A stretch of DNA of 32,000 bases from Acidobacteriota bacterium. Its GTDB lineage: Bacteria; Acidobacteriota; Terriglobia; Terriglobales; SCQP01. The stretch spans positions 43,239 through 75,238 of the forward strand of contig JAJYIU010000005.1 of NCBI GenBank assembly GCA_021789895.1, given 5' to 3'. The stretch's first letter is position 1. Each line of letters starts with the position of its first letter. The notes under the pieces were generated by a model. The model did no database searches. It was not told the origin of the DNA and saw only the letters and a list, made by a program, of their open reading frames with translations. This document shows, one piece after another, positions 5,371 through 25,318 of this stretch. A program made the position numbers and the translations under genes.

Positions 5371-5625
5371 ATGTTTCTGATTTGGTGGATCATCGTCGGC
5401 TTGATTGCCGGTTGGGCCACGGGCAAGATCATGCGCGGCGCCGGTTATGGCCCGCTAATGGATATCGTGGTCGGCATCATTGGAGCGGTCATCGGCGGCT
5501 GGATCATGAGCGCTTTGGGCGGCCCTGCCGCCGGCGGCCTGATCTACACTATCCTGGTCGCTATTCTGGGGGGCGTCATATTGACTGTTATTGTCCGCGC
5601 GATTAGCGGCCGGCGAACGGTCTGA
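5371..5625 (+). CDS. GlsB/YeaQ/YmgE family (transglycosylase-associated) small membrane protein
   Basis: 84 aa, MFLIWWIIVGLIAGWATGKIMRGAGYGPLMDIVVGIIGAVIGGWIMSALG; GGGAGG Shine-Dalgarno-like sequence just upstream (cacgggaggatctATG). Confidence 0.88.
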   Translation: MFLIWWIIVGLIAGWATGKIMRGAGYGPLMDIVVGIIGAVIGGWIMSALGGPAAGGLIYTILVAILGGVILTVIVRAISGRRTV

Positions 5626-5659
5626 GCGCGCCCGAACCTAAATCACAGGAGGCATTTCC

Positions 5660-6271
5660 ATGCCTATTGCCTGGCAAGCATCCCTGGCCGAAGCCCGCCG
5701 CCAGGCGGCGCAGATCCATCGCCCGGTCCTGCTCGATATCAGCGCCGCGCCGCGTTGAGGCGGCTGCGTTCAGATGGATACCGGGTCGTATCCACCGCCA
5801 TCCGTCAGCCGCTTCATCGAACAAGAGTTTGTGCCCGCGCGCGTCAACCTGATCAGCGGCGATCCGAGCCAGGCTGCCGGCTTCCACGTCCTTTGGACGC
5901 CTTGTTTTCTGGTCCTCGAAGGCGAGCGTGAATGCTATCGCAATTACGGCTTTCTGCCGGCAGAAGATCTTTCGGCCCTGCTCAGGATTGCCTTGGGAAT
6001 GCGGGCGCTGGGCTTGGGACGCTACGATGAAGCCGCCGCCTGGCACCACGAGGCCGCCGACGGCTTTTCTCAGAGCCCATTCCGCCCCCAGGCCCTCTAT
6101 TGGGAAGGTGTAGCGCGCTATAAGCAGAGCGGGGATTTCACCGCCGCCCGTGACATTTGGGAACGCTTGGCGCGCGAGGCCCCGGCCAGTACCTGGGCCC
6201 GCCGCGCCAGCTTCGCCTTGCGCCCGCACGAAGCCGTCTCCCAAACCGCCACCAATCCCGATAACCAATGA
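5660..6271 (+). CDS. Thioredoxin-like protein with TPR-like C-terminus; candidate selenoprotein with Sec at in-frame TGA 5756-5758 (redox motif UGGC)
   Basis: Consensus AGGAGG precedes ATG 5660. The frame reads MPIAWQASLAEARRQAAQIHRPVLLDISAAPR-[TGA]-GGCVQMDTGSYPPPSVSRFIEQEFVPARVNL...TPCFLVLEGE...YWEGVARYKQSGDF... to the stop at 6269-6271. The ATG and the post-TGA ORF (5774..6271) are in the same frame, so no frameshift is needed. The TGA takes the place of the first Cys of CxxC. Confidence 0.8.
5756..5799 (+). promoter_or_regulatory. Candidate bacterial SECIS element directly downstream of the in-frame TGA
   Basis: TGA (5756-5758), 16-nt spacer, then perfect 7-bp stem TGGATAC (5775-5781) / GTATCCA (5788-5794) with 6-nt loop CGGGTC (5782-5787). 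A second helix is possible: GGCGG (5759-5763) with CCGCC (5795-5799). The loop begins 23 nt after the TGA and has G at its second position. Confidence 0.7.
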
Positions 6272-6552
6272 CCCTGGCTGCCTTCTTCGTGCTCCTGGTG
6301 ATTGCCGGAGTCTGCGGCGCCCTGGGCGCCGGATTGGGCGGCTATTCCCACGCCGGCTGCCTGGGATCCATCCTGCTGGGTTTTATCGGCGCCGTGCTCG
6401 GCTCGTGGCTGGCCACGACCCTGCGCTTGCCGGCGGTGCTGGTGGTCGCCGTCGGCGGCGTGCCGTTTCCCGTCTTTTGGGCGGTGGTCGGCGCAGCGCT
6501 GTTCGTCTTCGCGCTGGGCCTGCTGCGCATCGGCGCCGCGCGCCGTAGTTGA
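6268..6552 (+). CDS. Small GlsB/YeaQ-like multi-pass membrane protein
   Basis: 94 aa, MTLAAFFVLLVIAGVCGALGAGLGGYSHAGCLGSILLGFIGAVLGSWLATTLRLPAVLVVAVGGVPFPVFWAVVGAALFVFALGLL; start overlaps the upstream stop (ATGA). Confidence 0.8.
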   Translation: MTLAAFFVLLVIAGVCGALGAGLGGYSHAGCLGSILLGFIGAVLGSWLATTLRLPAVLVVAVGGVPFPVFWAVVGAALFVFALGLLRIGAARRS

Positions 6553-9507: not shown

Positions 9508-9807
9508 ACTTGGATGGCAACTCACCTATTCTGACGGAAATCGCGCTCGGGCGCAATGCTGCCGGCGTTCGGTTTGCCCGCCGCGATCGCCTCCGCCGCG
9601 CACGTCTTGCGCCGCGCGCGGGGCCTGCTTTGCGGCGGCCGACTTCGGTATAATAGGCCGTGCCCTGGAGCCGAGGCCGCTCTCTTACCCCATCTCCTGT
9701 CCCGCACGGGAGCCCGGGCCATCGGCGTCTCCTTCGAATCCGTTTCCCATTCCCCCGCGTTTTCTGCCAACCTGCGCGCGCCCGGCCGCGGCCGGAGGAG
9801 GCGGCGA

Positions 9808-11472
9808 ATGAGCTGTAAATTTATCTTCATCACCGGCGGGGTGGTCTCCTCGCTGGGCAAGGGACTGGCGGCCGCTTCCATCGGCGCGCTGCTGGAAAGC
9901 CGCAAACTCAAAGTTTCGCTGCTCAAGCTGGATCCTTACCTCAACGTGGATCCCGGCACCATGAGTCCCTTCCAGCACGGCGAGGTCTTCGTCACCGACG
10001 ACGGCGCCGAAACCGATCTCGATCTCGGCCATTACGAACGCTTCACCCACGCCAAGCTGACCCGCGCCAACAATCTCACCGCCGGCCGCGTTTATGAACA
10101 GATTCTGGCCAAGGAGCGGCGCGGCGATTACCTCGGCAAGACCGTCCAGGTGATTCCGCACGTCACCGATGAAATCAAAGCCGCCATCCGCAAGGTCACC
10201 GAGGACGTGGACATCGCCATTGTCGAGATTGGCGGCACTGTCGGCGACATTGAATCGCTCCCTTTCCTCGAAGCCATCCGCCAGTTGCGCCAGGAAGTCG
10301 GCCGCGAAAACGCCATCTTCGTGCACGCCACCCTGGTGCCCTACATCGCCACCGCCGGCGAGCTGAAAACCAAGCCCACCCAGCATTCCGTCCGCGAGCT
10401 GCGCGAGATCGGCATCCAGGCCGATATCCTGCTGGCGCGCAGCGACCGCGAATTGAGCCGGGACCTGAAATCCAAAATCGCGCTCTTCTGCAACGTCGCC
10501 GAAGACGCGGTCATCACCGCGCGCGACGCCGAGAGCATCTATGAGGTCCCGCTGCTGTTCGCGCGCCAGTCGCTGGATGAGTTGATTTTGCGCTACCTGC
10601 ACCTCCAGGCCCCGGCGCGCGACCTCGCCGCCTGGGAAAGCCTGATCTGGCGCATGCGCCATCCCCAGGGCGAAGTGGCCATCGGCGTCGTCGGCAAATA
10701 TATCGAGTACGAAGACTCCTATAAGAGCCTCAAGGAAGCGCTGGTGCACGGCGCCCTGGCGCATTCGCTGCGCCTGCGCCTGGAGTGGATCGAGGCCGAA
10801 GACATCCAGCCCGCCTCCGCCGCCGCCCGCCTCGCCGGCGTGGATGGCGTGCTGGTTCCCGGCGGCTTCGGCAAGCGCGGCATTGCCGGCATGCTGCATG
10901 CCATCACCCATGCCCGCACCCGCGGCGTTCCTTATTTCGGCATCTGCCTGGGTATGCAGTGCGCCGTCATCGAGTTCGCCCGCAACGCCTGCGGCCTGGC
11001 CGACGCCGACAGCTCCGAATTCAATCCCGCCACCCCGCACCGCGTCATCTACAAATTGCGCGAGCTGCGCGGGGTCGAGGAAATGGGCGGCACCATGCGC
11101 CTCGGCGCCTGGCCCTGCCGGCTCCAGTCCGGCTCGCTGGCGGCGCTGGCCTACGGCGGCACTGAAATCAGCGAGCGCCACCGCCATCGCTACGAGTACA
11201 ACCGCGAATACGAACCCCTGCTCACCGGCGCCGGCCTGAAAATCACCGGCTCCAGCCCCGACCAGACCTACGTCGAAGTGGTCGAGCTCGAGGGCCATCC
11301 CTGGTTCCTCGGCTGCCAATTCCATCCCGAGTTCAAATCCCGCAGCCTGGAACCTCACCCCTTGTTCCGCGATTTCGTCGGCGCCGCGCATGCCTGGCGC
11401 CGCGCCCATCGCCCCGCCGCCGCTGCCAATGCTCTGCCGCCGCACGCCGCCGTGCTGGCCAGAGAACCCTGA
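9808..11472 (+). CDS. pyrG: CTP synthase
   Basis: [79 protein letters not shown]...; C-terminal glutaminase [19 protein letters not shown]. Start reassigned from 9556 to ATG 9808 after GGAGGAGG. Confidence 0.97.
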
Positions 11473-24694: not shown

Positions 24695-25318
24695 ATGCCT
24701 GCTTTAAAACCGTTCCGGGCAGCCGGCTTGGCTGCGCTTGCGTTCCTCTTCACCTTTGCTGCCGGGGCCGCGCGCCCCGCCGCTACCCGGCCCCTGCCCG
24801 CGCGTCCCCCGCTCGGCAATCCCCATGCCCGGGTCAAGGTCTATATCTTTGAGGACCTCGAATGCCCGGATTGCGCCTTGTGGCATAAATATCTGCGATC
24901 CACCATCCTGCCCCGCTACGGCAGCCGGGTGGCATTTTATCTGCGCGACTATCCCCTGCCACAACATAACTGGTCCTACAACGCTGCCGTGCTGGAACGC
25001 TTCTTCGCCGCGCATAACTCCCGCCTGTACTTTGCCTGGATTGATTATTGTTACGATCATCAGGCCGAAATCACCCCCGAAAACCTGATGAACCGCGCTG
25101 CTGCCCTCGCCGCCCCTTACGGCTTGACTCTGGACCGGTTGCAGCAAGCGTTTTCCAATGAACGCTACTTTCAGGCGGTGCAAAAAGACCAGTCTTTAGG
25201 CAACCGGATCGGGATTGATCACACCCCAACCATCTTTCTCGATCGGCCGGGTGGTGCGCAGGTCACTACCTTCGCCCAGTTCCAGCAAGCGCTCGCCCGC
25301 CAACTGCATGCGCGCTAG
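24695..25318 (+). CDS. DsbA-like / thioredoxin-fold secreted protein
   Basis: 207 aa, signal peptide, VKVYIFEDLECPDCALWHKYLRSTILPRYGSRVAFYLRDYPLPQHNWSYNAA...GIDHTPTIFLDRPGGAQ; CPDC motif. Confidence 0.87.
   Translation: MPALKPFRAAGLAALAFLFTFAAGAARPAATRPLPARPPLGNPHARVKVYIFEDLECPDCALWHKYLRSTILPRYGSRVAFYLRDYPLPQHNWSYNAAVLERFFAAHNSRLYFAWIDYCYDHQAEITPENLMNRAAALAAPYGLTLDRLQQAFSNERYFQAVQKDQSLGNRIGIDHTPTIFLDRPGGAQVTTFAQFQQALARQLHAR

Follow-up and report, generated by a model that had tools for sequence, protein, structure and literature searches.

Positions 5660-6271 of the 32,000-nt stretch of acidobacterial DNA analysed here (the window) very probably encode one 203-residue cytoplasmic selenoprotein, rather than a 32-residue peptide followed by a 165-residue fragment. 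On comparative sequence evidence we give this reading a probability of ~0.87. The decoding of the in-frame UGA as selenocysteine (Sec) is argued from the conservation of the TGA, the exchange of Sec and Cys at the same site, the predicted fold, a hairpin under constraint at the RNA level, selection on the codons upstream of the TGA, and the presence of the same TGA in an independent assembly.

Gene layout and conservation of the UGA

All features described below lie on the + strand. An AGGAGG Shine-Dalgarno sequence (5647-5652), read off the sequence, precedes the start codon ATG 5660-5662 with a 7-nt spacer. Translation of 5660-6271 from this ATG gives 203 codons, including Sec33, plus a terminal TGA (6269-6271). 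The N-terminal 32 codons (5660-5755), overlooked by gene callers, encode strand beta1 and the segment PVLLD(I/F)SAAP leading up to the active site, and include W5, a residue invariant in 20 diverse family members. They are followed by the in-frame UGA (5756-5758), the predicted codon for U33 at the first position of a U-G-G-C redox motif; the codon for the resolving Cys36 of U-x-x-C is located at 5765-5767. Between this UGA and the terminal stop, the frame stays open for 170 sense codons. The first-pass annotation had described this layout, from AGGAGG-ATG to position 6271, and all of it was recovered when the sequence was re-read. Its placement of the TGA at the first Cys of C-G-G-C likewise agrees with the junction, which reads ...HRPVLLDISAAPR*GGCVQMDTGSYP....

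The publicly called ORF (P0001; 165 aa; 5774-6271) covers only the C-terminal part of the gene. As had been remarked earlier, the supplied track calls nothing else here: ATG 5774 is the start in the mechanically made ORF list as well as in the public gene call, so that the first 38 residues are missing from the annotated product. The 165-aa ORF is an artefact of the UGA being taken for a stop. At other loci, the upstream stretch was called as a separate 32-aa ORF. These 32 codons are evidently under purifying selection, with a pN/pS of 0.41 compared to 0.32 downstream of the TGA. TGA is otherwise an ordinary stop here, closing 13 of 24 genes of the window.

A scan of the whole window (65% GC) returned ~75 in-frame TGAs with long open flanks, and none besides the one at 5756-5758 was associated with a redox motif. 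The geometry alone is therefore within chance expectation, and it is conservation that sets this TGA apart. A TGA at the identical codon was found in 9/9 distinct close orthologues (42-100% identity) and at 78 of 80 genome loci from species-representative genomes of ~8 phyla, the loci having been collected in a locus search with a narrower alignment (A4). The full-length architecture recurs in these 9 orthologues and 80 loci. Carriers of the TGA form belong to the Acidobacteriota, Gemmatimonadota, Eisenbacteria, Planctomycetota (Brocadia, Jettenia), Verrucomicrobiota, Myxococcota, Binatia and Thermodesulfobacteriota. An independent Logan assembly contains the same TGA, with 60/60 of the nucleotides checked being identical.

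In alignment A3, full-length Cys forms have the invariant first Cys of their C-x-G-C opposite the TGA codon. Approximately 25 full-length forms, mostly with Cys, were present among the top 150 cluster representatives. Whether homologues carry Cys or an aligned TGA at position 33 had been named earlier as the check to make. They carry TGA (the 78 loci above) or Cys, the latter in the proteins P0012 (SPTCGGC) and P0036 (KDGCGGC) and at loci L087 and L099, where the codon is TGT. Two further loci have TCA (Ser; L100) and CGA (Arg; L055) at the Sec site; the CGA may be an assembly error. Positions U/C33, G35, C36 and P81 are invariant in alignment A3, and the motif across loci is AAP(R/M/T)-U-(G/S/A/T)-(G/A)-C. 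Published criteria for selenoprotein prediction (PMC1088965) call for a TGA conserved in at least two sequences, for two or more homologues with Cys, and for a stem-loop further downstream whose small apical loop includes a G; the family of the 5660-6271 gene displays all three.

The hairpin downstream of the UGA

A predicted bacterial SECIS hairpin, a feature absent from the first-pass annotation, is located at 5775-5794, its stem beginning 17 nt past the UGA. It consists of a 5' arm (5775-5781, UGGAUAC), an apical loop (5782-5787, CGGGUC) and a 3' arm (5788-5794, GUAUCCA). The window hairpin has a folding z-score of -3.6 to -3.9, and the RNAalifold consensus is the same 5775-5794 hairpin. 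Across the family we found two hairpin classes, offset by 6 nt, at the same codon of one protein family; the class B stem is interrupted by a bulged base. Pairing was preserved to 94% in class A (19 distinct sequences) and 91% in class B (60 sequences), as compared to 24-47% in slid controls. Compensatory pairs occur at columns 23-36 (A-U/G-C) and 9-36 (AU 20, CG 13, GC 5), the class A hairpin including an A-U to G-C exchange; note that this covariation involves no more than one or two pairs in each class, and that most of the stem is invariant and thus uninformative for pairing.

In class A, the codons GAT and TAT within the hairpin are invariant, whereas outside it only 1 of 35 columns with an invariant residue has an invariant codon. 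In class B, 60-61 of 61 sequences share each of the stem codons CGG, CTG, GCC and GAG, whereas codon entropy is 0.35-2.03 at all 42 conserved residues outside the stem. Synonymous sites that are frozen in the hairpin and variable elsewhere in the gene are the mark of RNA-level constraint, as judged from these alignments.

An extended lower stem (5757-5815), in which 5757-5768 pairs with 5803-5815 (MFE -28 kcal/mol), is found in the window and its nearest relative (L001), with no wider conservation beyond these two. A lower helix considered for class A (columns 7-11 with 40-44) was rejected, being 64% paired. The distant Cys form L087 is without the hairpin. The close variants L099 (TGT), L100 (TCA) and L055 (CGA) retain it, and hence the hairpin alone does not tell Sec from non-Sec forms and the Cys forms serve as a partial hairpin-free control only. 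Scanning the window at Rfam gathering thresholds returned only a tRNA-Ala, and thus no curated RNA family fits the hairpin.

The E. coli fdhF-type SECIS hairpin likewise lies inside the ORF, begins no more than ~20 nt from the UGA and has G and U in a small apical loop, but the window hairpin is unrelated to it in sequence. G and U residues in the apical loop are typical of bacterial SECIS elements. The window loop CGGGUC also contains GGUC, as does the fdhF loop.

Domains, relatives and genomic context

Residues 4-84 (5669-5911) correspond to a thioredoxin-fold domain of the Thioredoxin_7/DsbD-gamma type. With U read as C, the Pfam models Thioredoxin_7 (PF13899) and PF03190 scored 29.3 and 27.3 bits, respectively (cut-off 27 for both), and a PDB profile search returned 2kuc, 2lst and DsbD-gamma at E-values of 1e-16 to 1e-15. 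A W79-T80-P81 cis-proline motif, with the invariant P81, is encoded at 5894-5902. The C-terminal part (residues ~111-183; 5990-6208) is a TPR-like helical domain resembling YbgF/CpoB. YbgF (2xev) was matched by profile at 1.8e-11, 6g5s matched as well, and Foldseek aligned the 2xev TPR with an rmsd of 1.2-1.4 Å over 82 columns. The Pfam TPR models remained below their cut-offs (TPR_16, 26.9 vs 32.7 bits, E = 6.6e-06; TPR_6, 24.1 vs 26.3 bits), as did the NCBIfam model tol_pal_ybgF (25.8-42.6 bits; cut-off 90). For the Cys homologue P0170, AlphaFold gave a model with a pLDDT of 91 (helices 106-191 above 95), from which Foldseek recovered the same folds as the PDB profile search; the active-site stretch of the model is coil of low confidence (residues 36-42, pLDDT <50). 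Both domain assignments made earlier from the letters alone, a thioredoxin fold and a TPR-type C-terminal half, are thus borne out, the second in the sense of a TPR-like domain of the YbgF/CpoB kind.

The nearest solved structures, by profile and by fold alike, are the DsbD gamma domain and small Trx7 proteins (2fwe, 1vrs, 1uc7, 2kuc, 2lst), which share the fold (target-normalised Foldseek TM ~0.66-0.70) and have CxxC at the same position. In contrast to the predicted selenoprotein, these are Cys proteins, and DsbD-gamma is periplasmic and tethered to a membrane domain, whereas the window protein lacks both a signal peptide and membrane segments and carries a TPR tail. The CnoX/YbbN chaperedoxins (3qdn, Salmonella) resemble it in being cytoplasmic and in having a thioredoxin fold followed by TPRs. 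Foldseek aligned 3qdn with E = 1.8e-05 over 207 columns; identity was only 14% and the rmsd 10.7 Å, so that the domain arrangement differs from that of CnoX/YbbN, and no match of the window protein to a CnoX/YbbN family model was found. E. coli CnoX has SxxC instead of CxxC and a longer TPR domain. The likeness is probably one of functional analogy, not of whole-protein homology.

Among known selenoproteins, the 'thiol:disulfide interchange protein' family (PF13098, UxxC; Geobacter representative WP_011366075.1) is similar in having a thioredoxin fold with Sec in place of the attacking N-terminal Cys of CxxC, an in-coding SECIS hairpin just past the UGA, and Cys homologues. The window protein differs in combining a Thioredoxin_7/DsbD-gamma domain with a YbgF-like TPR domain and in its U-x-G-C following AAP(M/R/T); the published description of the PF13098 family does not mention a TPR domain, this comparison being one of descriptions rather than of alignments. 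PF13098 scored 25.0 bits on the window protein (cut-off 27), and many homologues have a precomputed PF13098 match. No Geobacter protein and no entry named "selenoprotein" was among the matches listed in the homologue searches.

No NCBIfam model matches the family. The best matches there were weak, limited to the N-terminal 60-110 residues, and fell on (seleno)protein families with a Trx7-like domain; NF041383/NF041382, NF041199 and NF045694 have the DsbD-gamma-like thioredoxin domain in common with the window protein. Each was rejected as its family: VPGUxxT (NF041383/NF041382) for scores of 24.5-43.8 bits against cut-offs of 275/350 and a different motif; Trx7/PDZ (NF041199) for 16.7-26.2 bits against 300, its CxxU as opposed to Sec in first position here, and the lack of a PDZ domain; and TsoB (NF045694) for 17.6-66.7 bits against 805, its UxxxxU motif and rhodanese partner, with only the Trx domain matched. 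DsbD (NF001419) was also rejected (29-56 bits against 330), just the C-terminal Trx domain of the model being matched.

Thioredoxin-fold UxxC selenoproteins are a well-known class, within which the present family appears to be new. An inventory of prokaryotic selenoproteins from 2026 (119 families) has no TPR-containing, PF13899 or PF03190 entry, and the family was not described in the literature searched on selenoproteins with TPR, thioredoxin, Acidobacteria and Gemmatimonadota (subscription-only papers lay outside this search). In the databases, its members go under the names "hypothetical", "TPR" or "thioredoxin fold" protein and measure ~150 aa. All matches in the homologue searches (9/9 and 57/57) were shortened in the same way as P0001, and a query with a Gemmatimonadales member returned 3933 clusters at E <= 1e-10, with ~113 of the best 120 being ~150-aa fragments. 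The chances are about even that we are dealing with a very abundant selenoprotein family as yet missing from the catalogues, a Thioredoxin_7-TPR fusion with the motif AAPx-U-x-G-C that has the TGA in ~97% of carrier species-representative genomes, occurs in at least 8 phyla, especially in soil Acidobacteriota and Gemmatimonadota, and uses two SECIS designs.

The gene is preceded by an 84-aa Transgly_assoc membrane protein of the GlsB/YeaQ/YmgE type (PF04226; 5371-5625) and followed by a 94-aa hydrophobic protein without a Pfam match (6268-6552), whose ATG overlaps the stop of the candidate selenoprotein gene (ATGA), an overlap also found in L001. When the neighbouring ORFs (76 downstream, 73 upstream) were scanned with Pfam, no family was common to more than 4 loci, and hence there was no operon clue to function; by these scans the Transgly_assoc neighbour does not appear as a conserved partner. 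Pfam annotation of 28 window ORFs yielded housekeeping genes only. selA, selB, selD and tRNA-Sec were not found within the 32-kb window or the fetched flanks, and ARAGORN detected no tRNA-Sec in the window or 87 related loci. Selenoproteins are known from Acidobacteria (PMC1794560). At a related locus (L013), a peroxiredoxin gene has a TGA at the peroxidatic Cys (TxxU), 0.9 kb from that locus's own orthologue of the 5660-6271 gene, and is a candidate for a second selenoprotein, in a relative.

Alternative readings, proposed mechanism and significance

The public annotation might be correct, with the UGA acting as a stop, the 32 codons encoding a leader, a separate 165-residue TPR protein starting at ATG 5774, perhaps translationally coupled, and the hairpin functioning as a regulatory element or attenuator. 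Every gene caller makes this same call, an ATG is present 5 codons past the UGA in the clade of the window, and no other stop codon is as frequent in the window as TGA. However, the thioredoxin fold would then be split at its active site, with neither piece forming a complete fold with U-x-x-C, and the invariant G35 and C36 would fall between the UGA and the ATG (GGC...). Moreover, Cys forms occur as single full-length ORFs, and class B (61 sequences) has CTG (Leu) instead of ATG at the supposed restart. We consider this reading highly improbable. Hardly more probable is decoding of the UGA without SelB and Sec, either as Cys by a selC*-type tRNACys(UCA) or by an allo-tRNA suppressor, generating a full-length protein without selenium. 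Mukai et al. (2016, PMC5389517) reported allo-tRNAs, possible missense or nonsense suppressors, from Acidobacteria, and from other anaerobes selC* tRNACys(UCA), which a second SelB copy possibly uses; in addition, natural loci tolerate the change of one base in this codon to give Cys, Ser or Arg. Yet the reports of selC* concern Firmicutes, Thermodesulfobacteria, Nitrospirae and Proteobacteria and include neither Acidobacteria nor Gemmatimonadota (PMC5389517), and the maintenance of TGA plus hairpin over ~8 phyla better matches the universal SelB than lineage-specific suppressors. If Cys were to be inserted, TGT or TGC would be simpler, and nevertheless TGA prevails in the genomes surveyed.

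A sequencing or assembly error, or a recently inactivated pseudogene, is the least probable explanation of all. One window by itself cannot exclude an error, and MAG assemblies contain errors, the CGA of L055 perhaps being one. Against this, the same TGA recurs in the independent assembly, the close orthologues and nearly all genome loci, purifying selection is seen on both sides of the codon, and ~113 of the best 120 clusters of the Gemmatimonadales query are shortened. The comparative data thus effectively refute this explanation.

Under the preferred selenoprotein reading, the UGA at 5756-5758 would be decoded as Sec by the known bacterial mechanism, with the 5775-5794 hairpin in the mRNA bringing SelB·GTP·Sec-tRNASec to the ribosome. 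The N-terminal two-fifths of the product would form a DsbD-gamma/Thioredoxin_7-type thioredoxin fold with the redox centre U33-G-G-C36, and the C-terminal half a YbgF/CpoB-type TPR domain made up of three hairpins. Fold and motif suggest that the protein functions as a thiol/selenol oxidoreductase: the U33 selenolate would attack a disulfide or oxidised thiol of a client, C36 would resolve the intermediate to give an internal selenenylsulfide, and this bond would be recycled by a cellular reductant. By analogy with the Trx-TPR chaperedoxins CnoX/YbbN, the TPR domain most likely holds a partner or client protein.

If this reading is true, the gene in the window and thousands of similar database entries are cut at the active site and misnamed, and one profile model together with a SECIS rule would mend such entries. 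If, beyond this, the family is indeed uncatalogued and very abundant, Sec would be used far more often in largely aerobic soil lineages than current inventories suggest. The occurrence of two unrelated hairpins at the same codon of one family provides a natural experiment on the SECIS requirements of SelB, and also on the co-evolution of protein sequence and RNA structure. A Trx-TPR selenoprotein is, moreover, a candidate selenium-dependent 'chaperedoxin'; to our knowledge, none has been described so far. Being mostly in the Sec form in soil Acidobacteriota, Gemmatimonadota, Eisenbacteria and anammox Planctomycetota, the family offers a convenient marker for the use of Sec in lineages little studied for selenium, and it may connect the availability of selenium in soil with defence against redox stress.

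The in-frame TGA and its conservation

The gene under study lies on the forward strand, where a Shine-Dalgarno sequence (AGGAGG, 5647-5652) is followed, after a 7-nt spacer, by an ATG at 5660. This start opens a stretch of 32 sense codons ending at an in-frame TGA (5756-5758), after which 170 sense codons continue in the same frame to the stop at 6269-6271; the junction reads HRPVLLDISAAPR*GGCVQMDTGSYP, with the TGA at the asterisk. This layout, proposed in the first-pass annotation, was confirmed in the sequence, and the ATG at 5774 that it gave as the start of the supplied ORF is used both by the mechanical ORF list and by the public gene call (P0001, 165 aa). By itself, such geometry is unremarkable, since the window (65% GC) contains ~75 in-frame TGAs with long open stretches on either side. 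The case was therefore built on comparative evidence. Note that 13 of the 24 Pfam-supported genes in the window use TGA as stop, indicating that the codon is not reassigned in this genome.

An initial homology search yielded 9 proteins (151-165 aa), each starting at the same internal Met, and a separate ORF of 32-37 codons, ending 15 nt upstream, was called at most loci with a gene table. Translation through the gap recovered the same layout in 9/9 distinct sequences (42-100% identity), with the motifs APR*GGC, APT*GGC, APR*GAC, APR*AAC and SPT*AGC at the TGA. Among 1.84 billion cluster representatives, a profile search identified 1179 relatives at E <= 1e-10. Among the best 150 of these, about 109 were ~150-aa products starting at profile position 1, about 25 were proteins of 186-215 aa (one of 368 aa) with ~40 extra N-terminal residues, and about 16 were unrelated long TPR proteins. 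Most full-length forms have Cys at the aligned site (e.g. SPTCGGC, KDGCGGC, SPECVGC). Homologues display both states sought at this position, TGA in all nine orthologues and Cys in most full-length forms. Invariant in a 20-sequence alignment were W5, C/U33, G35, C36 and P81, the cis-Pro of WTP.

Searching one genome for each GTDB species gave 186 relatives; the counts below cover the best 80. TGA occupied the site in 78 of these 80; the others were a single TGT in a Blastocatellia genome (L087) and a single CGA in a Vicinamibacteria genome (L055). Carriers in the Acidobacteriota belong to Terriglobia, Vicinamibacteria, Thermoanaerobaculia and Polarisedimenticolia, and further carriers to Gemmatimonadota (many), Eisenbacteria, anammox Planctomycetota, Verrucomicrobiota, Myxococcota, Binatia, Thermodesulfobacteriota and others. 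One-base derivatives of the Sec codon were found at three related loci, encoding Arg (CGA, L055:~3090), Cys (TGT, L099:19-618) and Ser (TCA, L100:501-1115). These look like recent Sec-to-other conversions or consensus errors.

The sequence is coding on both sides of the TGA, and the TGA is no error. pN/pS was 0.41 for the 32 codons 5' of the TGA, compared to 0.32 for downstream codons 39-148, and an independent Logan assembly (L098, run SRR13170411) was identical over the 60 nt checked, TGA included.

Hairpins downstream of the UGA

The 60-80 nt 3' of the UGA in the window fold far better than shuffled sequences (z = -3.6 to -3.9), and RNAalifold recovers as consensus the conserved hairpin core UGGAUAC-CGGGUC-GUAUCCA at 5775-5794 (forward strand). 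Comparing the first 48 nt after the UGA in 81 distinct TGA-bearing sequences (the window and loci L001-L097) revealed two hairpin designs in one reading register. They are unrelated and offset by 6 nt after the same UGA, with stems GGAUAC/GUAUCC in class A and CUCGGC/GCCGAG in class B, and constrain the peptides MDTVTYP and ARLDAEVYP, respectively.

Class A takes in the clade of the window, Brocadia and some others (19 distinct sequences). Its 7-bp stem (positions 20-26/33-39, counted from the U of UGA; loop CGUGAC) pairs at 94%, versus 24-47% with the partners slid. Pair 23-36 changes from A-U to G-C in six sequences, in which an Asp-to-Gly replacement (GAU>GGU) is matched by a synonymous UAU>UAC. 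A lower helix considered for this class was dropped, as its pairing was just 64%. In class B (60-61 sequences), a stem of 13 bp with a single bulge (positions 7-19/25-38) carries the loop UGGAU or UGGAA and pairs at 91%, versus 30-47% in slid controls. Pair 9-36 is A-U in 20 sequences, C-G in 13 and G-C in 5, and one member (L022) has AACGGC/GCCGUU in place of CUCGGC/GCCGAG.

The strongest RNA-level signal for the hairpin comes from synonymous sites. Of the 35 columns with an invariant residue that lie outside the class A hairpin, only one has an invariant codon; within the hairpin, GAT is used throughout for Asp and TAT for Tyr, unusual choices at this GC content. The class B stem uses GCT for Ala (52/61), CGG for Arg (61/61), CTG for Leu (61/61), GCC for Ala (61/61) and GAG for Glu (60/60), while codon entropy is 0.35-2.03 at all 42 conserved residues elsewhere. 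These hairpin features agree with the definition of a bacterial SECIS in use in the field (PMC1088965): a small, G-containing apical loop on a stem right after the UGA. As a caveat, the close TGT (L099), TCA (L100) and CGA (L055) variants retain the class B hairpin; the distant Cys form L087 is the only variant without one.

Protein fold and relation to known families

When U is read as C, the full 203-aa protein scored 29.3 bits for Thioredoxin_7 and 27.3 bits for Thioredox_DsbH (Pfam cut-off 27 for both), and residues 111-183 gave TPR matches, all sub-threshold. A profile of 20 members matched small Trx7 proteins and DsbD gamma domain structures with the N-terminal half (2kuc, 2lst, 2fwe, 1vrs; E 1e-16 to 1e-15), and YbgF and CpoB TPR structures with the C-terminal half (2xev, 1.8e-11; 6g5s). 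The thioredoxin-like reading made from the sequence alone was supported, and the C-terminal half is TPR-like, as also suggested there. The AlphaFold model of a Cys-containing homologue (P0170; pLDDT 91, pTM 0.87) is of low confidence solely in the active-site loop (residues 36-42), and a Foldseek search with this model again pointed to thioredoxin and YbgF folds. A further match, the Trx-TPR protein YbbN/CnoX of Salmonella (3qdn; E = 1.8e-05), differs in domain arrangement.

Neither a signal peptide nor a membrane segment was found in the window protein. Anammox orthologues (Brocadia, Jettenia; L036:2911-3564, also L047, L048 and L057-L059) carry a signal-peptide-like N-terminal extension (MVMLKYVLSCLMLLVTPLAVTLAAD...) that is absent from the window protein and most others. 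Judging from these N-termini, the compartment of the family may differ between lineages.

Redox proteins of the Trx fold with UxxC or CxxU make up the majority of prokaryotic selenoproteins (PMC13188914). The product weakly resembles the NCBIfam selenoprotein families VPGUxxT, Trx7/PDZ and TsoB, but membership was rejected: it scores 17-67 bits where the cut-offs are 275-805, and both the motifs and the partner domains are different. The 2026 inventory of 119 prokaryotic selenoprotein families has no TPR, PF13899 or PF03190 entry. This is probably a new family within a well-known class, although it may be a TPR-bearing branch of the inventory's PF13098 UxxC family (representative WP_011366075.1), whose published description mentions no TPR domain. 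Database members are named 'hypothetical', 'tetratricopeptide repeat protein', 'thioredoxin fold domain-containing protein' or 'TolA-binding protein'; none of those matched is named 'selenoprotein'. Three 'full-length' JGI calls (P0159, P0209, P0248) have Trp at the Sec position (AAPMWSGC), the expected outcome of reading TGA with genetic code 4, which suggests an annotation artefact of short contigs translated with that code. Such translation is another way in which selenoproteins get hidden.

Decoding of the UGA and possible function

No selA, selB, selD or tRNA-Sec was found in the 32-kb window or the scanned flanks of related loci. Support for a Sec system is indirect: the TGA and hairpin persist under purifying selection in 78 genomes, and Acidobacteria have been published as selenoprotein-encoding (PMC1794560). 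In addition, 0.9 kb downstream of the orthologue at L013, an AhpC/TSA peroxiredoxin (L013:4026-4601, forward strand), called as products of 77 and 88 aa, has an in-frame TGA at its peroxidatic Cys (FTPG-U-KQE; AFYVLAFTPG*KQELQAY), marking it as a further selenoprotein candidate, one that belongs to the known Prx TxxU type. Decoding of the UGA by a non-Sec route, for which allo-tRNA suppressors in Acidobacteria and selC* tRNACys in other anaerobes are candidates (PMC5389517), is less likely and fits less well with the multi-phylum pattern of TGA plus hairpin. The conserved TGA, aligned Cys forms, hairpin and fold support the selenoprotein interpretation of the first-pass annotation, and we consider it highly probable (about 0.87) that the gene encodes a genuine SelB/SECIS-decoded selenoprotein.

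Observed here were the fold with its cis-Pro motif, a U-x-G-C centre where CxxC canonically lies, the C-terminal TPR tail and the signals for recoding. The hairpin would recruit SelB·Sec-tRNASec. In the protein, U33 would attack as a selenolate and C36 would serve as its resolving thiol, forming a selenenylsulfide that a cellular reductant would recycle. By analogy with the Trx-TPR chaperedoxin CnoX/YbbN, the TPR domain may bind a partner or client protein.

The gene neighbourhood was no help on function, as no family recurred in more than 4 loci among 76 downstream and 73 upstream neighbours. The gene is flanked by small hydrophobic (membrane) proteins, an 84-aa Transgly_assoc/YeaQ-type protein upstream (5371-5625) and a 94-aa protein without Pfam hit downstream (6268-6552), whose ATG overlaps the selenoprotein stop (ATGA). 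This flanking is common to the nearest relatives (L001, L002), but not to more distant ones. Elsewhere in the window, at a distance of 18 kb, lies the gene for a DsbA-like Thioredoxin_4 protein (207 aa, 24695-25318), an ordinary Cys protein for which no link to the selenoprotein was seen. For the CTP synthase (9556-11472), the longest ORF spans 638 aa, but Pfam matches it from residue 88 onwards and the call for the L001 orthologue has 555 aa; translation probably begins ~80 codons further downstream.

In conclusion, the finding is a useful one and would come as something of a surprise to a selenium specialist, but involves no new principle. What stands out about the family is how large it is (3933 clusters at 90% identity matched one member), that Sec forms predominate over Cys forms, how it is distributed across soil phyla, and that it has two alternative SECIS designs.
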